Source: a virus (taxonomy: Duplodnaviria > Heunggongvirae > Uroviricota > Caudoviricetes). From it: a stretch of DNA of 9,278 nt. A program made the translations under genes and the position numbers. The stretch spans positions 1-9,278 of IMG/VR virus record IMGVR_UViG_2690316243_000015; one strand, given 5' to 3'. Positions 1 through 9,278 of this stretch are shown here, piece after piece. The number at the start of each line of letters is the position of its first letter. Position 1 is the stretch's first letter. The notes below the pieces were generated by a model that was not told the origin of the DNA, did no database searches, and saw only the letters and a list, made by a program, of their open reading frames with translations.

Positions 1-351
1 TCACGGCGCAGAAGTGTACCAACCGAAACTTGTTAACCCGGCATCGCAGCGCTCACGATTAAGCACACGTGGCGGGTTTTCTCTGGTCATCAACTCAAGC
101 AAGGCATTGCCTCCCTGCGTCTCTAGGCGGTATTGCCTATCGGTAGTGGTAATGGCATCCGGCAATAACTTTATGGCGGCCTGGCTAAAGTCTCGCGGTG
201 CGCCGTAAAATTGCGCATCAACAATATGAACCACATCGCCGTTAATCGTTGTCCGATAACGGTCTGGCTGTATGGTAAAGCCCCCACAATGGATAGCAGA
301 TAGTGCCGGTGCCGAGGAGATCAGGCCGGCTGCCAGAATGTATGGCTTCAT
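1..351 (-). CDS. Putative exported protein, partial (C-terminus lies beyond the window start); N-terminal signal-peptide-like segment
   Basis: ORF-track ORF 1..351; N-terminus MKPYILAAGLISSAPALSAIHC has a basic n-region, hydrophobic core and ALSA-type cleavage context. Start ATG (349-351) overlaps the stop of the upstream peptidase gene as ATGA. No recognised family. Confidence 0.4.
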   Translation of the reverse strand: MKPYILAAGLISSAPALSAIHCGGFTIQPDRYRTTINGDVVHIVDAQFYGAPRDFSQAAIKLLPDAITTTDRQYRLETQGGNALLELMTRENPPRVLNRERCDAGLTSFGWYTSAP

Positions 352-989
352 TCTTCACCCACCAATTCATCCAGTTCAGCCAGCGTCATAGGCTTTGGTA
401 CAGGCTTGTCAATATCACCCATAATGCGCTGGAAGTTGCTGGCAGGCATATGGTTACGGTTCTCCAGTATTTTCGCCAGCGCGATAACATCCCACCATTT
501 CAGGGCAATCAGCGCCTCAGCACGGGAAAGGGATATTCTCTGTATATCAGCATCCTCCCCACCAGCCACCCGGTATACCTCTGATAAATCACGAACATTT
601 TTCATGTCTGCTTTCCCGGACGTTTCCATCAGTGCGTTAATATCATCCCCCGTATAGCGTGATTGCGCGACGATACCAGCCAGAGAGATAACCATAGCCC
701 GGCATACCTGGTCTATCAGACGTAACCTGGTGTCATCATTCGAGAGGGTGTAAGACTTAACCTCAGCCACATTCCGTGGATAGTTGGCGTGCCATACCGC
801 GACAGCTCCACATTCATCAACATCGCCGCTAAGGTAGGTTTTTGCCACTCGGTTATTACCCGATAACGCAATTTCTACCTCCTGTATGCCGAAAAACCAT
901 GCGGCTATCGCATGACCTGCTTCATGTATTGCAAGATGTCTGGGCCAGCGATAGCTGCCGAACTCAATAATGATGGGTTGCGTACTCAT
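348..989 (-). CDS. HExxH zinc-metallopeptidase-like protein (FtsH/M41-like peptidase domain without an ATPase module)
   Basis: Motif AIHEAGHAIAAW resembles the FtsH YHEAGHA zinc site; downstream SLAGIVAQSRYTGDDIN loosely resembles the FtsH protease-domain LGGRAAE..TGA..D region. Start placed at ATG 987-989 (MSTQP...) because of a GAGGGAAG Shine-Dalgarno ~6 nt upstream; the ORF-track ORF extends to 1067 but that would overlap the upstream gene. Confidence 0.55.
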   Translation of the reverse strand: MSTQPIIIEFGSYRWPRHLAIHEAGHAIAAWFFGIQEVEIALSGNNRVAKTYLSGDVDECGAVAVWHANYPRNVAEVKSYTLSNDDTRLRLIDQVCRAMVISLAGIVAQSRYTGDDINALMETSGKADMKNVRDLSEVYRVAGGEDADIQRISLSRAEALIALKWWDVIALAKILENRNHMPASNFQRIMGDIDKPVPKPMTLAELDELVGEE

Positions 990-999
990 ATCTTCCCTC

Positions 1000-1434
1000 T
1001 CAGAATGGCGTTTCATCGTCGAATGGTGGGCGTTGGTCGTATTCATCACGGGATGGCTGCTGCGCACGTCTCAGCGCGTCCGTTGCCTGTCCCCGCTGTC
1101 CTGCCTTCCCGCCGGGGCGTACCGTTCTGGCGCTGATCACACTGTCGGCTACTACCTGATACCCCTGCTGTGTACCGCCGTCCTGCCCTGTCCACTGGTT
1201 GAGTTGCATATTGCCTGCCACGCTCACAAGGTCGCCTTTCTGGTGCTTTGCCAGCGCATCGGCCTGCTTCCCAAAAGCAATAACGCCCAGCCAGAAGGTT
1301 GACTCTCCCGCCTCTGCCGCATTACAGGGGAGAGACACCGCCAGCCGCGCCATAGCCATGTTGTTACCGTTCGTTGTGGTGCGGGTCTGGGGATCTGCCA
1401 CCAGCCGCCCGTATGCTGAAATTTGTGCTGTCAT
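1000..1434 (-). CDS. Divergent single-stranded DNA-binding protein (SSB-like OB fold with acidic C-terminal tail)
   Basis: Aligns by eye to E. coli SSB: [15 protein letters not shown] vs [40 protein letters not shown] vs [35 protein letters not shown] vs RKWTDQSGQ; C-terminus PPFDDETPF vs DFDDDIPF. GGAGAG Shine-Dalgarno 9 nt upstream; ATGA overlap with the upstream gene. Confidence 0.7.
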   Translation of the reverse strand: [144 protein letters not shown]

Positions 1435-1688
1435 GCTGTCTGCTCTCCGGTTTTAACGTTGATGGTTGTCACCTGTTCCGCTTCGGCAATCTCCCGTTCT
1501 GTCAGCGTGGCAAAATTTGCCGCCGCCGTTGTCATGAATGCGCTTATCAGTTCGGGATGTGCTTTTGCGTATCCTTCTCCCGTGTTGCGGTCGATGATTT
1601 TTATCGCCAACCTCAGCCAGTGCTCTGTAAGGTCAATAGTGCGGTTATGTGGTTTCTTCTGATTATTAAGTTTTCCTGATGTGTGCAT
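1431..1688 (-). CDS. Small hypothetical protein (85 aa from MHTSGK...; the ORF could start at 1748)
   Basis: ORF-track ORF 1431..1748; internal ATG at 1686-1688 has GAGGGGG ~13 nt upstream and avoids running into the iteron region. Stop overlaps the SSB start (ATGA). No recognised family. Confidence 0.45.
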   Translation of the reverse strand: MHTSGKLNNQKKPHNRTIDLTEHWLRLAIKIIDRNTGEGYAKAHPELISAFMTTAAANFATLTEREIAEAEQVTTINVKTGEQTA

Positions 1689-1737
1689 TTTTGTTTTTAC
1701 CCCCTCGTTTAAAAAGTTTTGAGTTGTACCTCCCCCC

Positions 1738-1967
1738 CCTCTACCCATCTACCCGAATGCTCCTCAGGTCAGTAATGGCGCGGCTTTCAGCGGGTAGATA
1801 GCTTTTTGGGCTCCTCTACCTGCCGTCTACCCGGCTACCTGAAATTGATAAAATCAGGTAGATGAGGTAGAGAGCTTTTGAACCCCCTCTACCTGCCATC
1901 TACCTGATATATTCTACTGAATAATATATATTTATTTACTTAAGGTAGAGGGGGGAGAGGGCTTTTG
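1738..1967. repeat. Iteron-like repeat array plus AT-rich tract; putative replication origin for the adjacent primase/helicase
   Basis: At least seven direct copies of (T)CTACC (at 1741, 1748, 1815, 1826, 1835, 1888, 1899) and four inverted GGTAGA (1793, 1857, 1866, 1944). Two ~28-bp units, GGTAGATAGCTTTTTGGGCTCCTCTACC (1793-1820) and GGTAGAGAGCTTTTGAACCCCCTCTACC (1866-1893), each carry internal inverted ends. A near-pure AT tract lies at ~1905-1943. Located in the only sizeable intergenic gap, immediately 3' of the primase gene. Confidence 0.55.
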
Positions 1968-1974
1968 CCAAAAA

Positions 1975-3729
1975 CTATAAAAACGCGTCGCAATCGTCTG
2001 TTGTTATTGCGTTAGTCTGCGTTACCCCCTTAATTTTCCGCGTAATATATTCATGTCCGTAAACTTTCGCCGCTGGCTTCATAGCTTTGCTGAACTCAGC
2101 TACGTTCAGCGGCTTGTTCCTGCCGGCATACGCCATAAACGCCAGATAGACGCGGTAAAGGCTGTTTCTGGTCGTGTACCTGGAAGAGTCACCGCCGCCG
2201 CCCATCATCAGGCCGCGTGCTTCTTCCAGAAAGTTAAGGAACTGGCAAAATTCAATAACCGGATCCGTCTGTTGCTTTATTGCCAGTGCTTCATCACCGT
2301 CACGCTGTTCCAGTAGTAAAGCCCGTGCCTTTTCAGGGTCGGCAAAGTTCGCCAGCAAGCGGCGGATAATGACTGGGATTTCAGCCGCGATTTTTTCCGG
2401 TAGTTCTCTGTCTTTTTCGGCCTCACTGACGATATTGTCGAAACGGAAAATCACGCGACGACGTGCCACGCCTCCGGCCCGTTCGGTGAATATCATCGGG
2501 TTGTTATTGGTTGCCAGCACAACCGCCCTGATTACCGCTGTGAAACGCTTCTCATATTTCGGGTTAATTTCCACGGGGTCGCCGCCAGTGATTTTCTTGA
2601 TGCCCGTGCCTTCGCCTGTATATTTCGGCTGGTCTGCCAGGACAATAAGCCGACTCCCGACAACCTGCGCACGTCCACCAGCATCATCAAGCGATGTCAT
2701 TTCAGCGCTTACCGTGTTCTGTTTCCCTGCCAGAAGGCTGGCTATGTGCGTGAAAGTGCTCTTGCCGCTCCCGCCGTCTCCGGTGGCCTCAATAAACATC
2801 TGCCAGTCGTGGCGGTTCGCCATAATCATGTACAGCGCGGCGCATATGCGCATCATCTTGTGCGGGTCTTTTCCGGCTGCATGTTCAAGCCATTTGTGGA
2901 AGTTCGGCGCGTTGTCGCGGATGTTTTCCCCTGGTACTGGTGGCGTGTATTCAATGCCGTTGTGTGTGGTGAGCCAGTTCTCCGGCTGGTGCGGTGAAAA
3001 TTCCCCCGTTATCAGGTTAAGCACACCATTGGCAAACGGCAGCAAATCACCGGACGGCTCGCCCATCGGGTCAGCAATAACTTTTAACGCTTCAACGGCG
3101 TTATTAATTGCCCGCTTGCTGAATGTGGCCCCGTGTTCTGAATAAACCGCCACCATTTCGCGGCTCAGTTCCATTGTGCTGACCGGACACCATACCCCGC
3201 CGCGCCATACGTGAACGATTTCACTTTCAGGATGCACGCAAACGCCATCAAAGCGATCGGCAAGCAGCTGCGCGCGCTCACTGTCCGCCATCTGCGAAAG
3301 TTGCGCCTTTTGCGTTACCGGAAGCTCAATCACCAGACCATCAGAAAGATTCTGGCGCTCACGGGCCAGATATTCGCGCCAGTTCTGCACCTCCTGGCCG
3401 TGCATACCCTCAGGATAAAAATTTGCATCCTGTACGCCTGCCGCCGCCAGCTTCTGACCAATCGCCTTGATCATTACAGGCTCAAGATGTCCGGCTCTGT
3501 ATATGCGTGCTGATTTTCTGCCATCCGGCACAATTTGCAGATTATCTAGTTCGGATAGCTGCTGCTCTCCAAGCCACACAGGAGGCTCATTATCTCCGGC
3601 TGTACGCGCGTCATGTTCCTGCCACTGTTTCGCGTGTGCCCAGGCATCACTACCCGCAAAAATGATCACTTCGGTTTGAGCGTGTTTTATTCCGCGTGGC
3701 TGTTTTTTTACGTTCGGTGCCAGTTTCAT
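1975..3729 (-). CDS. P4 alpha-type replication protein (phage/plasmid primase, P4-family C-terminal domain with SF3-type helicase Walker A GDGGSGKST)
   Basis: 584-aa ORF; Walker A TGDGGSGKSTF; later VVLATNNNP resembles SF3 helicase motif C; overall resemblance to P4-family primase C-terminal region. AGGGG Shine-Dalgarno 8 nt upstream; ATGA overlap with the upstream gene. Confidence 0.8.
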   Translation of the reverse strand: MKLAPNVKKQPRGIKHAQTEVIIFAGSDAWAHAKQWQEHDARTAGDNEPPVWLGEQQLSELDNLQIVPDGRKSARIYRAGHLEPVMIKAIGQKLAAAGVQDANFYPEGMHGQEVQNWREYLARERQNLSDGLVIELPVTQKAQLSQMADSERAQLLADRFDGVCVHPESEIVHVWRGGVWCPVSTMELSREMVAVYSEHGATFSKRAINNAVEALKVIADPMGEPSGDLLPFANGVLNLITGEFSPHQPENWLTTHNGIEYTPPVPGENIRDNAPNFHKWLEHAAGKDPHKMMRICAALYMIMANRHDWQMFIEATGDGGSGKSTFTHIASLLAGKQNTVSAEMTSLDDAGGRAQVVGSRLIVLADQPKYTGEGTGIKKITGGDPVEINPKYEKRFTAVIRAVVLATNNNPMIFTERAGGVARRRVIFRFDNIVSEAEKDRELPEKIAAEIPVIIRRLLANFADPEKARALLLEQRDGDEALAIKQQTDPVIEFCQFLNFLEEARGLMMGGGGDSSRYTTRNSLYRVYLAFMAYAGRNKPLNVAEFSKAMKPAAKVYGHEYITRKIKGVTQTNAITTDDCDAFL

Positions 3730-4025
3730 TTTTTACCCCTGAATGCGTTAAGCATGTTTTTCATTTCCTGAATATTTGCCCGCGCCTTTTCCCTGCTGGT
3801 GGACTGTTTGCGTGGCGCGGCCTGTACCAGCGAAAAATCACGCCGGAACTGATAAACAGGCATCACGCAATCATAGTCGTAGCCTTCACGGCGGTAAGTG
3901 ATGCGCCGTTCTGCCACGCCTTTAATCGTTACCGTACCGCCGTAGTTATCCCGGAAAATATCTCCGTGTCTGATTTCAGGCCGAGCGGGGCCGCTGGCAG
4001 TAAAGCCAGAATTTTTCTTTTTCAT
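3726..4025 (-). CDS. Small hypothetical protein (99 aa), paralogue of the 60-aa protein at 5270-5452
   Basis: Shared motif GGTVTIKGVAERRITYRREGYDYDCVMPVYQFRRDF vs GALVTVESVSHNRVTFYRDGYQSPCVQPLARFMKEF. AGGAAAA Shine-Dalgarno; stop overlaps the primase start. Confidence 0.55.
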   Translation of the reverse strand: MKKKNSGFTASGPARPEIRHGDIFRDNYGGTVTIKGVAERRITYRREGYDYDCVMPVYQFRRDFSLVQAAPRKQSTSREKARANIQEMKNMLNAFRGKK

Positions 4026-4029
4026 GGTT

Positions 4030-4230
4030 TTATTTTCCTGTCAGCAGTTCCGGTTTTATTTCCGCACGAATACAGAGTTCAGAAAAAAATTCAGGAGAAC
4101 CAACAATCTCATTACTTTTCAGTCGGCATTGTGATTTCACTTTCCCTTTATCCAGGTAAACCAGTACGCGTCCTGTATAATCTGACGGCACATTCAGCAC
4201 TACAGGTAAGTGCGCTTCATGATGATTCAT
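4030..4230 (-). CDS. Small hypothetical protein (66 aa), paralogue of the adjacent 71-aa protein
   Basis: YTGRVLVYLDKGKVKSQCRLKSNEIVGSPEFFSELCIRA aligns with FTGQLLVNVDKGRVVCNYHLPDEAIVATRESLQELAERA. GGGGGTGAG Shine-Dalgarno directly upstream of the ATG. Confidence 0.5.
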   Translation of the reverse strand: MNHHEAHLPVVLNVPSDYTGRVLVYLDKGKVKSQCRLKSNEIVGSPEFFSELCIRAEIKPELLTGK

Positions 4231-4432
4231 GTCTCACCCCCTGAATATTCGCGTTAATCATTCCGGCACGTTCTGCGAGTTCCTGTAATGATTCCCTTGT
4301 TGCGACAATTGCTTCATCTGGCAGGTGGTAATTACATACCACGCGACCTTTATCCACATTGACCAGTAGCTGCCCGGTAAATTTCTCACGAAACTGAATG
4401 CGGTTAAGGTCGGTAAGTGACAGATTAATCAT
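4217..4432 (-). CDS. Small hypothetical protein (71 aa), paralogue of the adjacent 66-aa protein
   Basis: See the paralogue alignment above; GGAGGT Shine-Dalgarno 7 nt upstream; 8-nt overlap with the upstream 283-aa gene and 14-nt overlap with the downstream 66-aa gene. Confidence 0.5.
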   Translation of the reverse strand: MINLSLTDLNRIQFREKFTGQLLVNVDKGRVVCNYHLPDEAIVATRESLQELAERAGMINANIQGVRHESS

Positions 4433-5276
4433 GGCCCACCTCCTGACGAATACGGGCGGCGAATACCATCACGCAGCCATCAGGAGATTGCTGGCGGGCT
4501 TCCTGTTCGCTGGTGGCCACGATGTGAATCACGCGCGGTTGTGCTGTGCTCAGGGCGATAAAGCGCCAGATAAAGGCAGTTTGAGAATGTATAAGGGTAG
4601 GGGTAGTAGCCATGTTGGCAGCCTCCTTCAGATAGCAGGTTACGCTACCACCGGAAACGCCAATTTCGCTGGTGGTAGCCCAGACAGGGTTGGCGTAACC
4701 GGCTCTGAAGGATACCGGCGCTTCCGAAGAAGCCCCCGCCTGAGCCACCATTGATTGACAAAGGCGCTGGATTATACACCAACGCCCAAAAAATGGGTGA
4801 GTCAGACCTACGACATAAAAAAAGACGCTCGGCGCGTCATATGTCGCCTTCAGAATTTTCAGGACGCCAATCCTGGCCCCCGTTTTATGAGGTGCCTTAT
4901 AACCATAAACCGTGTTGCCGCATAACGGCAAGCTCTTTTTTATGGACTCCGAAAACTCACTATTGGAAGAACCAGAGGCACAGTACATCGCGCTCATTTC
5001 GTTAACGTTGCGCATGCGGACGAAGATTTTTGTGGAGTCACTACGCGAGCAGAACAGGTCATCTACGACCAGAAATTCTCTGGCGCAGCCGCTGACCTTC
5101 TCAACGCTAATATCATCGCCCGAGATTTCTGGCATGGTTAAGGCATCCGTTCCGACCACCAGCAAATGATAAACTTTGTTTGTATCTGCTGTATTAATGC
5201 CTGACTTTGCCGCCATATTGCTGGATTTTGGCGACATGCCAGCCAGTGAAAATATCTTCTTCTGGGCGGTTAGCAT
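4425..5276 (-). CDS. Hypothetical protein (283 aa), function unknown
   Basis: Long ORF with GGAGG Shine-Dalgarno 7 nt upstream of the ATG at 5274-5276; start overlaps the stop of the upstream small gene (ATGCTAA). No motif I can assign with confidence. Confidence 0.6.
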
Positions 5277-5452
5277 TTGTTAACCTCCGCGAACTCCTTC
5301 ATGAAACGTGCCAGCGGTTGCACGCATGGCGATTGATACCCGTCGCGATAAAACGTCACTCGGTTGTGAGACACGCTTTCGACAGTAACGAGTGCTCCGT
5401 GGGCATCTTTGTAGCGTTTTTGAGGTTGTGGTGTTCCTGTCGGCTTAAACAT
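5270..5452 (-). CDS. Small hypothetical protein (60 aa from MFKPTG...), paralogue of the 99-aa protein at 3726-4025
   Basis: ORF-track ORF extends to 5539, but the ATG at 5450-5452 has GGAGG 7 nt upstream and overlaps the AntA stop (ATGTTTAA), whereas the longer form would overlap AntA by ~95 nt. Shares the TFYRDGY..C..P..F motif with the 99-aa protein. Confidence 0.5.
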   Translation of the reverse strand: MFKPTGTPQPQKRYKDAHGALVTVESVSHNRVTFYRDGYQSPCVQPLARFMKEFAEVNKC

Positions 5453-6254
5453 GGACCGCCTCCAGACGCTTAGCGAGCCAGCGTTGCGACAGGCGGGTGA
5501 GTTCTCCTTTGCGCTGCTCATATTCCATGCCCATATCAATTAACGTGATATTGGTGCTTTCGAGATAGGCGAGGTGTTCAAGCTGTGCTGCGTTCATGCT
5601 GTCCCGTGGTTCGCCAGTAATGCCATTTGCCTGCGCCCACTGCTTCGCCGTCATGCCACCCAGCACGATACGGGCGATCATGTTGCTCTCGTTGCTGTAG
5701 TGGCGCTGCTGCGTCGTTTTGCCCATCTCGGCACGGGCCATATTCAGCGCATCGCACATTGGCTTAAAGTTGTTTGCGGCACTGAGACGGGCTTTTAGCT
5801 GGCGACGATAGCGGGCGGCGATTTCAGGCACGCTACGCTGTAATTCTTCCTCGCACTGGATGAAATAACGGCGGATAGCGCGGCCCTGCTCGTTGCGTTC
5901 AACCATTGCCACTTCTTTAGCCATATCCAGCGATAGCAGGTAATCATGCTCTATTTGCTGGCGAGTTTTTGCGCTCGCCCGTTTTGGCGTGCTCAAATTT
6001 TCAACACGGATAAAATCGGTTCCGGCAATAAAACCGTACTGGTCAATTCGGACTTTAATCCAGTTAGTAAAGTCGCGGCCCACCCCCAGCGCTTTATGCA
6101 ACGCCTTAGCGCTCACAATATTGGCTTCACGCCCGCCAATGCGTCCGGCAATAACGGGAACAATAGCGGCAAAGTCGTTGCCGTTAATTACTCCCGTGTT
6201 AACGTTGGGTTGCGGGGCGGCCCCCGAACTGAATCGGCTTTTTTCGATAGTCAT
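5445..6254 (-). CDS. AntA/AntB-family phage antirepressor-like protein
   Basis: SAKALHKALGVGRDFTNWIKVRIDQYGFIAGTDF and LSLDMAKEVAMVERNEQGRAIRRYFIQCEE match the conserved AntA-domain signature as I recall it. Start placed at ATG 6252-6254 (MTIEK...) with GGAG 8 nt upstream; the ORF-track start at 6314 would overlap the upstream gene. Confidence 0.6.
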   Translation of the reverse strand: MTIEKSRFSSGAAPQPNVNTGVINGNDFAAIVPVIAGRIGGREANIVSAKALHKALGVGRDFTNWIKVRIDQYGFIAGTDFIRVENLSTPKRASAKTRQQIEHDYLLSLDMAKEVAMVERNEQGRAIRRYFIQCEEELQRSVPEIAARYRRQLKARLSAANNFKPMCDALNMARAEMGKTTQQRHYSNESNMIARIVLGGMTAKQWAQANGITGEPRDSMNAAQLEHLAYLESTNITLIDMGMEYEQRKGELTRLSQRWLAKRLEAVHV

Positions 6255-6267
6255 ATTTTCGGCTCCG

Positions 6268-6699
6268 TTATGCGGCGGTGAGATTGTCCGGGTATAGATT
6301 GAGAATGTCGGCAATTTCAGGCTGAGAAAGTCCCTGATAGCCGCCAGCGTCGGCGTTATGGTTCACAAGCCGAATAACTTTTAGAACGTCACCGCGCCCG
6401 GTAAAGCGATAGCGTAAATGTGACCCTATCCCGTCGGGGTTCTTTTCGTCTATACGCTCAAGCTGAATATCAAGCCTGCGCTCTAACTCGCTGGCGTAGT
6501 TCCTTCCAGACGAAAGGCGGCAATAACGCAGAATGTCATTTTCTGTCCATCCCTCTATACCAGTACGCAGCATATAGACTCTGGCACGATGCTTTTTCGG
6601 TGTGCGCTTTGGTGCTTGAAGGGATTTTGTAAGGGGCGTAACATCAGATACGCGAATATCTGAATTAGCCGCCTGTAATGGGCGGTTTTTCTTTTCCAT
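6268..6699 (-). CDS. Hypothetical protein (143 aa), basic N-terminus, function unknown
   Basis: ORF with AAGGTGG Shine-Dalgarno; its ATG overlaps the AlpA stop by 1 nt (TGATG), indicating co-translation with alpA. No recognised family. Confidence 0.5.
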   Translation of the reverse strand: MEKKNRPLQAANSDIRVSDVTPLTKSLQAPKRTPKKHRARVYMLRTGIEGWTENDILRYCRLSSGRNYASELERRLDIQLERIDEKNPDGIGSHLRYRFTGRGDVLKVIRLVNHNADAGGYQGLSQPEIADILNLYPDNLTAA

Positions 6700-6902
6700 C
6701 AGGCCACCTTCCCGCGGCGTTCTGCCAGCCAGTTGTGAATCTCAACCGCATCAAACGCAGTTATTTTTTCTCCCAGCTTTACCGGACGTGGTAGTGAACC
6801 GTTTCTTACTTTACGGTCGATGGTGGATACACTAACGCCCAGCAATTCAGCCAGGCGGAAGCGTCTGATATAGCCTTTTGTAGGGATAGTGTCGATGTTC
6901 AT
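6699..6902 (-). CDS. alpA: AlpA/Vis-family transcriptional regulator / excision accessory protein (MerR-like HTH)
   Basis: 67 aa; IRRFRLAELLGVSVSTIDRKVRNGSLPRPVKLGEKITAFDAVEIHNWL fits the AlpA (CP4-57 regulatory protein) pattern of an HTH followed by P.P.KLG and a conserved W. Typical size and position next to a P4-type integrase. Confidence 0.8.
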   Translation of the reverse strand: MNIDTIPTKGYIRRFRLAELLGVSVSTIDRKVRNGSLPRPVKLGEKITAFDAVEIHNWLAERRGKVA

Positions 6903-6985
6903 GATTCCCGTAACCTCTTAGCGATAGTTGTTGCTTCGTTACGGGTATTTAATGGCGTGCACGCTCAAAAAGGAATGATCGTATT

Positions 6986-7028
6986 TTTTACTATCGTGAT
7001 AGTAAAATTTACTATCACCTTTTTTTCC
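6986..7028. promoter_or_regulatory. Perfect 23-bp palindrome GTGATAGTAAAATTTACTATCAC (6996-7018) with an extra TACTATC half-site (6989-6995), followed by a T7 run; operator-like site or terminator
   Basis: Direct reading: three TACTATC/GATAGTA half-sites centred ~10-11 bp apart; lies ~95-125 nt upstream of the alpA ATG and overlaps the stop codon of the 282-aa gene. Confidence 0.4.
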
Positions 7029-7863
7029 CTGCCGTGGTGCGTTCTTCCGGTGTTCTGTCTGCGTCGGCTATGAGTTTCTTCAGGTAATCTATGGATGGCT
7101 CATCATAGCCGCCCCCCAAAAGCGCCCAGTGGTTTATTGTGGCGTTCGCCCATGCTTCGTTGGTTTCCTTCCCGTTCTTCCCTTTACACTCTTCTGGGTA
7201 GTGCCGCTTCACATAAATCAACGCCAAGAGGCAAATTTCGCGCTTTTGCCTGTGGCGCTCTCTGTTTCCGTGCTCAACGTTTTTAACATCCTCATAAAGA
7301 GCTTGTAAGTTTATGCGAGTTTCGGGGCTGTATATGGGCTGGTTTTTGTCCATGCATTCGCCGATATATTCAACCCACGGCCTTGTTATGTACAAATCCT
7401 CTACGGATATTTCGTGGAAGGCATGTTTTGTATAATCGAGAAAAAAATAATAATTCGCACTTACGTCTAGTTCTCTTTTTCTGTGTGCGGGGCTGAATAT
7501 GCGTGCGGGAGTGTCAATAGAATCAAGCCCTGCGATGTCGAGTATATAGGAGGCGTTAACATGCCATAGCCCAAGCACATGGCAATCTATATGATTTACA
7601 ACGCCTGCCTTAAAGCTTTTTTCGTCCTCTACTTCAGTGATTATGTCGGCAAGTAATAAGCAGTCTTCTTTGACGTCTGGGAATAAAGAGCAATTGCGGT
7701 AAAGACTCGCGATGCTATGTAATGTGCCGTCGTAGCCGCAAAGGTACGCGCTCAAATATATAGATTCTGCCGCCGCCATAATCAAAAGATCATCAATATC
7801 TATTTCTAATAATTCGGCTGCTCTGTTAAGCCTGAAAAAAGGGGCGGGTGGTAATTTTTTCAT
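7015..7863 (-). CDS. Hypothetical protein (282 aa); AT-rich orphan gene between int and alpA
   Basis: Intact ORF with AAGGTG Shine-Dalgarno 7 nt upstream. Hand GC counts on three 60-nt lines inside it give ~35-43%, against ~60% for sampled lines in int and the primase. No recognised catalytic motif. Confidence 0.6.
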   Translation of the reverse strand: MKKLPPAPFFRLNRAAELLEIDIDDLLIMAAAESIYLSAYLCGYDGTLHSIASLYRNCSLFPDVKEDCLLLADIITEVEDEKSFKAGVVNHIDCHVLGLWHVNASYILDIAGLDSIDTPARIFSPAHRKRELDVSANYYFFLDYTKHAFHEISVEDLYITRPWVEYIGECMDKNQPIYSPETRINLQALYEDVKNVEHGNRERHRQKREICLLALIYVKRHYPEECKGKNGKETNEAWANATINHWALLGGGYDEPSIDYLKKLIADADRTPEERTTAGKKR

Positions 7864-7958
7864 TGCGTCACCTTTTACGCTGCGCCTTATTTTGTGATTG
7901 AGCCAGGCGGTAAGGCTTCCCGCTTTTCGCCCCGTCGAGCTAGGCTCAATCTATTCAG

Positions 7959-9278
7959 TTAGTTCGCCCTTCTGAGAGGCGTTACGTTGTAGTCTTTTCC
8001 GCTTTCCAGTGCCACCAGCAGATCAGCCCACTGTGCCAGTGCTGCTTTACGCTCATCAAAATACTGATGGCGGTTATAAATCCCCTCTACGCCCTTAATG
8101 CGATGATTGAGGCATCGTTCCGCCACAACAGGATCAACACCCAACGCTGCTAAATGAGTACGTGCGGTGCGTCGAAAGTCGTGAATCGTGAAATTAGGCA
8201 CATCCGGCATTTCGGCGCGAACCTTAGCCAGTGCTACGGGTAAAGTGCTTTCCTGAATATGTGGGATCATTCTGTTTTGCATCTTCCTGGCCGGAAGCAC
8301 CCATGCGCTATTACATGAAAAGGTGTGTAGCTCTCTCAACCATTCAACGGCTGGGGAAGGTAGAGGTATATCAATAGGGTCTCCGTTTTTGCTGCGTTCT
8401 TCCGGCAAATGCCATACCGCACCATCTAAATCAAACTCTTCCCATCGTGCGGCGCATAATTCCATTTTGCGGACGCATAACGCTAACAGTAATTTGAACG
8501 TGATTTCGTTCTGGCGACTGAATCCCTTAGCCGTGCGCATGGCTTTGAATAGCTGGATTAACTCATCGCGGGTTAACCAGCGGTCACGGGCAGCTTCTTT
8601 CCCTCCGGCGTCTGCCACCTCAAAGGCTGAACAGGGGTTAATCTCTAGCGCGTGCCGTTTGATTCCGTAGTCGAATATGCGGCGCGTCCATCTCAGCACG
8701 TCCGTTGCTATGGTCGGCGCTCCACGGTCAACAATACCTTTCAGCATGTCATCGATATGGCGCGGTTTCACGTCCTCTACCTTCATGCTGCCAATGCAGG
8801 GGTTTATATCTTTGTCGATACGGCGGCGGAGTATATCGGGGTGCTTCCAGCGCGGGAGGATCTGACGCTCAAAGTATTCAGCGGCAAGCTCTGAAACGCG
8901 CATAGCGTTCTTCTCTGCTTCCATCTTCGCCAGTGCTTCGGTTTTGCGCTTCTGCTTCTCTCCTGCAACGTCATAGCCCAGCGCAACGCGAGCCGATAGC
9001 TCTTTGGCTGTCTCTCTGGCCTTTGATAGTGATAGCTCGCTATACGAACCAATTAGCATGGCGCGGGACTTCCCTGCGAGTTTATAGCGGAATCTCCATG
9101 TGGGGGTTTTGTCGGCTTCACGGTAACGTAGGTATAAACCGTTACCGTCTGCCCGCCCCTCGAATCGCTCTCCGCTCTTAATCCATGCGCGGATCTGCAT
9201 GTCTGTTAGTTTTGGCATTTTGCGAATATCCAAACTTTGAATAGGGGGTGTACCCAAAGCAATGTACCCAAACCTCAT
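7959..9278 (-). CDS. int: Tyrosine site-specific integrase (P4-like); 5' end at or beyond the window edge
   Basis: C-terminal catalytic region with HDFRRTARTHL (HxxR) and terminal IYNRHQYFDER (candidate catalytic Tyr); N-terminal region typical of phage integrase arm-binding domains. The ORF reaches the window edge at 9278; an internal ATG at 9216-9218 (MPKLTDMQIRAW...) is a plausible true start but has no clear Shine-Dalgarno. Confidence 0.9.
   Translation of the reverse strand: MRFGYIALGTPPIQSLDIRKMPKLTDMQIRAWIKSGERFEGRADGNGLYLRYREADKTPTWRFRYKLAGKSRAMLIGSYSELSLSKARETAKELSARVALGYDVAGEKQKRKTEALAKMEAEKNAMRVSELAAEYFERQILPRWKHPDILRRRIDKDINPCIGSMKVEDVKPRHIDDMLKGIVDRGAPTIATDVLRWTRRIFDYGIKRHALEINPCSAFEVADAGGKEAARDRWLTRDELIQLFKAMRTAKGFSRQNEITFKLLLALCVRKMELCAARWEEFDLDGAVWHLPEERSKNGDPIDIPLPSPAVEWLRELHTFSCNSAWVLPARKMQNRMIPHIQESTLPVALAKVRAEMPDVPNFTIHDFRRTARTHLAALGVDPVVAERCLNHRIKGVEGIYNRHQYFDERKAALAQWADLLVALESGKDYNVTPLRRAN

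Follow-up and report, generated by a model that had tools for sequence, protein, structure and literature searches.

A question raised by the stretch of DNA analysed here (9,278 nt, positions 1 to 9,278 of the IMG/VR virus record IMGVR_UViG_2690316243_000015; hereafter, the window) is whether a small gene in it encodes a genuine SSB, a protein that binds single-stranded DNA, and, if it does, what use a mobile element would make of an SSB of its own. The gene is a single ATG-to-stop frame at 1000..1434 on the minus strand, which encodes a protein of 144 aa plus the stop codon and gives it the C-terminus PPFDDETPF. An initial annotation, made from the letters alone, had taken the product for a compact SSB homologue that keeps the signature residues of the OB fold and ends in an SSB-type acidic tip, with which it could compete with or mimic host SSB, or support the element's own primase/helicase. 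We have examined these points using family models, structure models, and the comparison of related loci.

Identity of the SSB gene

The minus-strand frame carries good signals for translation: a Shine-Dalgarno sequence, GGAGAG, is located at 1443..1448 on the same strand, 8 nt before the ATG, and the ATG overlaps the TGA stop of the ORF upstream as ATGA, both being read directly from the sequence. Two plus-strand ORFs (970-1302 and 1199-1456) overlap the gene; both the family matches and the conservation favour the minus-strand frame. Alignment to SSB families, which had been proposed as a check on the initial annotation, was performed, and the protein passed the thresholds of both bacterial SSB families, namely Pfam PF00436 (SSB; E=5.6e-17 and 62.1 bits against a cutoff of 26, over residues 4-99) and TIGR00621 (ssb; 57.1 bits, the cutoff being 53.95), and matched phrog_44, "single strand DNA binding protein", with E=6.7e-34. 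A search of PDB sequences matched 28 distinct SSB sequences, the best being 7r4w (4e-11), with E. coli 1eqq at 5e-07. The product of 1000-1434 is a genuine compact SSB and not the translation of a chance ORF, and in every respect that could be computed it agrees with the SSB family, except at the positions equivalent to W40 and H55 of E. coli SSB.

Two other assignments of the gene were tried and rejected. It is not a duplicated host ssb, judging from the identity of 31% and a PRK09010 score of 37.4 bits against a cutoff of 260, and it is not an F-type plasmid SSB, for which PRK13732 gave 25.6 bits against a cutoff of 265 and only 25 plasmid matches were found.

OB fold and linker

An AlphaFold2 (AF2) monomer model was built on a 74-sequence alignment. 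Its pLDDT values were 94-98 over residues 1-100 and 58-70 past residue 100, and the model, Foldseek, and alignments together assign the OB-fold ssDNA-binding domain to residues 1-101 (1132..1434, minus strand). The modelled strands at residues 3-11, 16-19, 25-36, 44-54, 69-82, and 88-101 and the helix at 55-62 follow one another in the order of the SSB OB fold. When the model was compared with PDB structures, the best 50 Foldseek matches were all bacterial SSBs, with target TM-scores of 0.66-0.84, and they include S. aureus SsbA/SsbB, B. subtilis SsbA and SsbB, and the SSBs of P. aeruginosa and E. coli (1eqq).

For the comparison with E. coli SSB (177 aa without Met), the list of its stacking and tetramer residues was taken from PMC2964679. 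The OB domain is 31% identical to this protein by BLASTP. In the multiple alignment, the base-stacking residues W54, F60, and W88 of E. coli correspond to W48, F54, and W81 of the window SSB, whereas base-stacking W40 is replaced by C37, within an L23 loop that is 3 residues shorter, and H55, which serves tetramerisation, is replaced by L49. The statement that the OB-fold signature residues are kept is thus correct for three aromatics and incorrect for the W40-type aromatic and the His55 tetramer residue, both of which are missing. Within the subfamily, W48 is found in 69 of 74 sequences and F54 in all 74, the position of W81 is aromatic in 72 of 73, and position 37 is variable. The loss of His55 is not disqualifying, because in the Thermotoga SSBs, for which the description "smallest known bacterial SSBs" has been used, His55, Gln76, and Gln110 are all missing and tetramers are formed even so (PMC2964679). 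The window SSB is probably a homotetramer.

After the OB domain, a short charged linker was delimited at residues 102-135 (1030..1131, minus strand) on the basis of pLDDT, column entropy, and composition. It is 34 residues long, whereas the E. coli linker (113-168) has 56, and this difference accounts for 22 of the 33-34 residues that are missing relative to E. coli SSB, in good agreement with the earlier view that the protein is shorter mainly through its linker; the remaining deficit comes from the N-terminus (4 residues), the L23 loop (3 residues), and 1 further residue. The linker is net basic (8 K/R and 4 D/E), contains no PxxP, and has a Gly+Gln+Pro content of 32%, against 66% in E. coli. 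It opens with the basic segment SARTVRPGG, of which SARTVRP is conserved within the subfamily, and AF2 weakly predicts a short helix at residues 117-124 in this region, where pLDDT is 58-70. Because the charged linker is unlike the Gly/Gln/Pro-rich linker of E. coli, cooperativity and oligomeric behaviour cannot be assumed.

The C-terminal tip and its conservation

The SSB-Ct-type acidic tip PPFDDETPF occupies residues 136-144 (1003..1029, minus strand) and was assigned from sequence and family conservation. When it is placed beside the E. coli tip, MDFDDDIPF, it is seen to keep both Asp residues, the Pro in the penultimate position, and the Phe at the end, and position -3 has Thr in place of the usual Ile/Leu/Val (Ile in E. 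coli). The kept residues include those whose change in E. coli SSB, at the penultimate Pro or the terminal Phe (ssb-113, deltaF), weakens the binding of partners (PMC10164576).

We searched 1.84 billion 50%-identity representatives exhaustively with HMMER; 7647 relatives had E<=1e-3, and 379 of these had E<=1e-10. An acidic stretch with a hydrophobic last residue was present at the C-terminus in 64 of the top 101 full-length-like representatives, and many of the others resemble frameshifted or truncated predictions. In the 74-sequence alignment, D140 is retained in 67/74, P143 in 52/71, and F144 in 68/74, but these counts are partly circular because the alignment was picked for tip-bearing members, and the unselected 64/101 is the fairer figure. 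The C-termini of the 120 closest homologues are variants of one theme, DDDIPF among them. The consensus F-D-D-[ED]-[ILV]-P-F is maintained at 35-50% identity, and the family also contains variants such as ...YDDDF, without the Pro, and ...DDSIPL, without the Phe. In the tip-selected alignment of 74 sequences, whose members go down to 31% identity, the mean column entropy is 3.17 bits in the linker (occupancy about 70%), against 1.86 in the tip and 1.92 in the OB domain. An end of the form [F/Y]-D-D-x-x-P-F thus persists to about 35-40% identity, the hypervariable linker notwithstanding, and on this pattern of sequence conservation the tip is not a coincidental similarity and is under selection. 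The family models, the OB-fold model, and the family-wide conservation of the tip agree, and they support the earlier reading that a mobile element here encodes a compact homologue of SSB whose C-terminus is an acidic tip of the SSB type.

Island architecture and putative origin

All genes of the window lie on the minus strand, and we describe them here from the high-numbered end. A tyrosine integrase with Arm-DNA-bind_3, Phage_int_M, and Phage_integrase domains (7959..9278) is followed by an RNA match, the int-alpA RNA (7884-7950), a 282-aa protein, an AlpA-family regulator (6699..6902; PF05930, E=2.2e-08), a 143-aa protein, AntA (5445-6314), and a DUF4222-like small protein. Then come an Ash-family protein (4425-5276), which contains a C4 antisense RNA (4668-4755) and isrK (4818-4895), two PHROG-340 proteins, and a DUF4222 protein (3726-4025). 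The primase-helicase at 1975..3729 (584 aa) is of the P4 family, with D5_N, DUF5906, and Pox_D5 domains in Pfam; it matches phrog_864, DNA primase, with E=5.5e-170, and scores 105.6 bits with TIGR01613, just below the cutoff of 108.7.

A putative origin of replication without strand assignment was found at 1740..1949, in the 226-nt gap after the primase-helicase and the start of a small ORF. It consists of 10 RGGTAGA heptamers in both orientations flanking an AT-rich stretch at about 1905-1942. In the whole window there are 13 such heptamers against 1.08 expected, and none of 200 shuffles reached 13. Published ori regions of Gram-negative phage-inducible chromosomal islands (PICIs; GN-PICIs for the Gram-negative ones) lie downstream of pri in a similar layout (PMC6092414; PMC10111431). 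The small ORF (1431..1748, minus strand) belongs to PHROG 1231, encodes 105 aa from its first ATG or 85 aa from the ATG at 1688, and is translationally coupled to the SSB gene. Beyond the SSB gene lie a protein with an HEAGH motif, discussed below, and, according to the ORF list, a 116-aa protein with a hydrophobic, signal-peptide-like start.

The window is a GN-PICI/P4-related satellite of enteric bacteria. Its int, alpA, and pri genes are co-oriented on the minus strand, as in the definition of PICIs (PMC10111431), and an iteron/AT-rich putative ori follows pri (PMC6092414). PICIs are small (about 10-18 kb), sit at a chromosomal att site, and are without a full set of phage genes; the related DY612 island of E. 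coli, which has the SSB module in common with the window and measures about 12 kb, fits this description, the window itself comprising 9.3 kb only. As P4-type features we found an alpha-like primase, C4/CI RNA, isrK, and Icd/Ash. The P4 genes sid, delta, and psu were found neither among the window ORFs nor in the complete DY612 island, and the 9.3-kb window contains no packaging or capsid gene.

Related loci and distribution

The module 1-1434 recurs in E. coli DY612 with 99.5% identity, as part of the aforementioned island, which is located between yicC and dinD and has a different primase of 814 aa in front. What the islands of Enterobacter asburiae and E. sichuanensis share with the window is the SSB gene alone (999-1434, at 98.6-98.9% identity); a Zn-ribbon-Toprim-DUF927 primase-helicase is found upstream, and their flanks are unrelated to the window, save for two stretches, both short and about 77-80% identical, in other parts of the islands. 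Salmonella islands have DUF927 and then SSB, and Klebsiella islands have Toprim-DUF927 and then SSB. E. coli O157:H7 has a PICI-type island that forms capsids; it carries a major capsid gene, a head decoration gene, and terS, and shows the order RepA-family helicase, small ORF, and SSB.

When the large ORFs upstream of SSB were collected from species-representative genomes, 19 of 22 had primase-helicase domains, and in nearly every intact locus a helicase of one of four types precedes SSB at a distance of no more than about 2.1 kb. SSBs with at least 99% identity occur behind D5-type, Toprim+D5 hybrid, and Toprim-DUF927 helicases, and between the D5-type of the window and the Zn-ribbon-Toprim-DUF927 type (loci L010/L011) there is no detectable similarity. 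Across the locus table, no correlation was seen between tip variant and helicase type. The genes after SSB vary, including ProQ, Gp49/HTH, RES, PerC, late genes, or the HEAGH protein. A conserved partner ORF upstream was also considered and rejected, the small ORFs between ori and SSB being mutually unrelated.

The protein search gave 857 clusters, from Escherichia, Citrobacter, Klebsiella, Salmonella, Enterobacter, Raoultella, Pluralibacter, and others. Relatives were present in 1765 of 5426 complete E. coli genomes, with at most 6 per genome, and almost all were chromosomal; those sampled from E. coli are annotated "single-stranded DNA-binding protein", and E. coli 19-5 carries one whose nucleotide sequence is 100% identical. 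Several relatives are truncated or tip-less (loci L027, L035, and L036, and a 114-aa second copy in Salmonella). Among 72,556 plasmid records we found 25 matches only, several of which look like excised islands. One related island exists as an episome, recorded as a 22.9-kb circular "plasmid" of K. pneumoniae; in this record 213-4559 is repeated at 18417-22763, which suggests a true circle of about 18 kb. This circular relative is the only indirect hint that the island may be induced, packaged, and transferred with the aid of a helper phage. In a tblastn search of 50,697 phage records, no match reached 60% identity, the best being about 35% and nearly all staphylococcal, so that a recent capture of the gene from a helper phage was rejected.

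Proposed role of the island SSB

It is probable, in our judgement, that the protein is a functional bacterial-type SSB of the GN-PICI replication zone, that is, an accessory replisome SSB that coats island ssDNA and whose tip probably recruits host partners. Concerning its ssDNA binding and tetrameric state, the partners of its tip, and the timing and benefit of its action, we infer the following course of events. After induction, the island primase-helicase would open the iteron/AT-rich origin located about 300 bp upstream of the SSB gene. The island SSB, encoded co-directionally and in translational coupling with the small ORF, would then coat the exposed ssDNA via its OB fold (W48, F54, and W81), and its host-type tip, D-D-x-x-P-F, would dock the host proteins that read such tips, foremost chi of the Pol III clamp loader, by which priming would pass to host elongation. 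At the switch from priming to elongation, the SSB tip is contested by DnaG and chi (PMC3632105). A host-type tip would have been kept because the island is without its own polymerase. The SSB would be no essential initiator but an auxiliary supply, of use when the replication of helper phage and satellite calls for more SSB; for EcCICFT073, the pri-ori segment alone drives plasmid replication (PMC6092414), and the island SSB is therefore probably auxiliary and dispensable for basic replication. Judging from the Thr at -3 and the family variants YDDDF and DDSIPL, the tip is not strictly host-like, and its partners may differ accordingly from those of host SSB. In the literature searched, we found no experiment on any PICI SSB.

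The alternatives differ mainly in what the tip is thought to contact. The earlier proposal that the SSB supports the element's own primase/helicase is right as to position, since the gene is downstream of both the primase/helicase and the putative ori, and it can be sharpened to a cognate adaptor, which would contact the primase-helicase of the island through its tip and the basic segment after the OB fold, much as the tails of phage SSBs bind replication proteins of their own phage. The adjacency to a primase/helicase gene in nearly every intact locus and the conserved SARTVRP segment are in line with this, but practically the same SSB (at least 99% identity) stands behind mutually dissimilar helicases, there being four types in all, including the RepA family, and the tip consensus is the general bacterial SSB-Ct motif. 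The pairing of one SSB with unrelated helicases argues against a cognate contact and favours a generic, host-directed tip over a co-evolved one, and we regard the adaptor as unlikely, the foremost of the alternatives though it is. Somewhat behind it we place the possibility that the satellite SSB titrates the partners of host SSB or displaces the SSB of host or helper, to the harm of helper replication or host repair. Satellites commonly interfere with their helpers (PMC6092414), the tip is host-like, and the subfamily is island-specific, as the phage records lack a close relative; however, there is no sign of toxicity, one in three complete E. coli genomes has relatives, in up to 6 copies each, and the gene is placed in the replication zone, outside the variable zone of cargo and interference genes. 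A broader speculation, to which we give a small chance, below that of such competition, is that these proteins form a satellite-specific, short-linker SSB clade that is swapped as a gene-sized cassette among four unrelated helicase types, and that its diversifying, host-mimicking tips (...DDETPF, ...YDDDF, ...DDSIPL, and ...DDDIPF) tune which SSB partners of host or helper are captured, diverting the Pol III/repair hub from the helper phage or evading SSB-sensing defences; as a separate part of it, the adjacent FtsH-type protease domain may work with the SSB.

Two further explanations are less probable again. The SSB could act as an immune decoy or trigger by modulating defence systems that sense phage SSBs, and it is true that the cargo beside it is often defence- or toxin-like (e.g., RES and Gp49/HTH) and that the title of a preprint reports phage SSB-like proteins controlling a defence system (10.64898/2026.04.29.721553). 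This seems quite improbable to us, however: PADLOC models matched neither the SSB nor the upstream ORF nor the two downstream genes, and the neighbours change while the link to the primase stays constant. The least probable is a decaying remnant without function, which the aforementioned truncated or tip-less relatives might suggest; the window gene is an intact ORF with a good Shine-Dalgarno sequence and translational coupling, and its OB residues and tip are conserved over hundreds of clusters.

Comparison with known systems

The accessory replisome SSB preferred here finds its nearest counterpart in published GN-PICIs, whose "Replication" zone was described in 2023 as including Primase, SSB, and DUF5906, with the SSB placed together with the primase and a mapped ori (PMC10111431). 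The window follows the same plan, with int, AlpA, a Bro-type zone (AntA/Ash, C4/isrK), primase, ori, SSB, and variable late or cargo genes in the same order; it shows no essential difference, its particular features being a short D5-type primase without Zn-ribbon/Toprim and an M41-like protease domain that replaces the late genes. The window SSB corresponds to the SSB family already recorded in GN-PICIs and is real but ordinary, being already annotated in RefSeq.

In comparison with E. coli SSB (1EQQ/1EYG), the OB fold, three of four stacking aromatics, a disordered linker, and a tip with D-D, Pro, and Phe are shared, whereas the window SSB has Cys for W40, Leu for H55, an L23 loop shorter by 3 residues, and Thr for the Ile of the tip. 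The SSBs of Thermotoga maritima and T. neapolitana (141-142 aa) reach a similar compactness through a short C-terminal region and keep the terminal acidic motif (PMC2964679), but they are chromosomal housekeeping proteins of thermophiles with a C-terminal domain that is about 40% acidic, whereas the linker of the window SSB is net basic. SSBs of 120-150 aa are numerous in databases. Conjugative-plasmid SSBs of the F Ssf type are likewise mobile-element SSBs with a host-type tip, and F SSB is able to substitute for E. coli ssb mutants; F-type plasmid SSBs, however, sit in the leading region, whereas the window SSB sits behind primase-helicase and ori. Phage SSBs that act together with replication or recombination proteins of their own phage, such as that of HK620 with Sak4 (PMC5928155), are likewise mobile-element SSBs beside the element's own DNA-metabolism genes. 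Unlike phages with such SSBs, the island has no recombinase partner, and the best phage matches of its SSB, which are staphylococcal, are about 35% identical.

If the proposed mechanism is true, satellites bring their own SSB and borrow the host polymerase via its tip, which is tidy but expected, and the SSB itself raises no new question. In this island family it can be used as a landmark, because it closes the replication zone (primase, ori, and SSB) and opens the variable cargo, where defence, toxin, and interference genes are found.

Neighbouring FtsH-type protease domain

The gene immediately after SSB (348..989, minus strand) encodes a 213-aa protein with the HEAGH motif, which comparison of its AF2 fold assigns as a stand-alone FtsH-type (M41-like) metalloprotease domain. 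Sequence searches including Pfam, PHROG, and PADLOC gave no family match, and a PDB sequence search gave nothing usable. The AF2 model has a pTM of 0.81, and nearly all of its best 50 Foldseek matches are protease chains of FtsH/AFG3L2/YME1, although with weak E-values (best 7e-4) and a query TM of about 0.5. An obligatory SSB-protease pair, viewed from the SSB side, was rejected, since the protease follows SSB in only 3 of 36 loci. The HEAGH protein itself has 23 homologue clusters only, and every context examined was an island of this kind with an SSB 0-1 genes upstream. If the modelled fold is correct, the presence of an M41-like protease domain on its own in a phage satellite would be less expected in the window than that of the SSB.

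Mosaic behavior of the SSB gene

In comparison with related loci, the SSB gene behaves as a gene-sized mosaic cassette. Two Enterobacter species (E. asburiae and E. sichuanensis, loci L010/L011) share window 999-1434 at 98.6-98.9% identity, with the borders of homology being the borders of the gene, and homology to the island of E. coli DY612 breaks off precisely at the start codon of the SSB (1434). The Salmonella islands L002-L005 contain, besides the first SSB, another SSB-like ORF (114 aa, about 13117-13461), which is located downstream of it at a distance of 3 kb and shows 55% identity to the OB domain of the query; this ORF has no acidic tip and terminates in GTQEATAQA.

Region upstream of the SSB gene

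A putative origin of replication was located at 1740-1949, directly after the primase gene, where an AT-rich stretch is bordered by RGGTAGA heptamers, ten in all and in both orientations; this layout agrees with that published for PICI origins. The whole window contains 13 such heptamers against 1.08 expected. Between this region and the SSB gene lies the PHROG-1231 ORF (1431-1748, minus strand), which is translationally coupled to SSB via ATGA. Because its first ATG falls within the iteron region, this ORF may in reality begin with the ATG at 1688. In other islands the slot is occupied by unrelated small ORFs.

Genes downstream of the SSB gene

The 213-aa protein encoded at 348-989 (minus strand), whose HEAGH motif is invariant, had no match in Pfam, NCBIfam, PHROG, PADLOC or PDB sequences. 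Its AF2 model (pTM 0.81) matched almost solely the protease domains of FtsH, AFG3L2 and YME1, with weak E-values, and these structural matches suggest that the protein is a stand-alone M41-like protease domain that lacks the AAA+ module. Homologues form only 23 clusters, and in all contexts examined the gene was found in int-AlpA-primase islands, where it follows an SSB at a distance of 0-1 genes, the hosts being Escherichia, Klebsiella, Dickeya and Buttiauxella, together with a contig labelled Chryseobacterium. A 116-aa protein (1-351, minus strand) with a hydrophobic, signal-peptide-like N-terminus (MKPYILAAGLISSAPALSA...) gave no family match; it accompanies the HEAGH protein in three of the compared loci (L001, L015 and L019).

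RNA elements and an episomal form

Three P4-type immunity RNA elements, all on the minus strand, were assigned by Rfam with scores above gathering: C4 antisense RNA (4668-4755, 79.9 bits) and isrK (4818-4895, 62.9 bits), both inside the Ash-family gene, and int-alpA RNA (7884-7950, 60.6 bits), which is positioned just downstream of the integrase gene and ahead of a 282-aa ORF.

The K. pneumoniae 'plasmid' NZ_CP033626.1 (L008), a circular record of 22.9 kb, is an episomal form of an int-HTH-AntA-Icd-primase-SSB island. Because the assembly repeats 213-4559 at 18417-22763, the circle probably has an actual size of about 18 kb. One gene of this record bears the annotation 'tape measure protein'.
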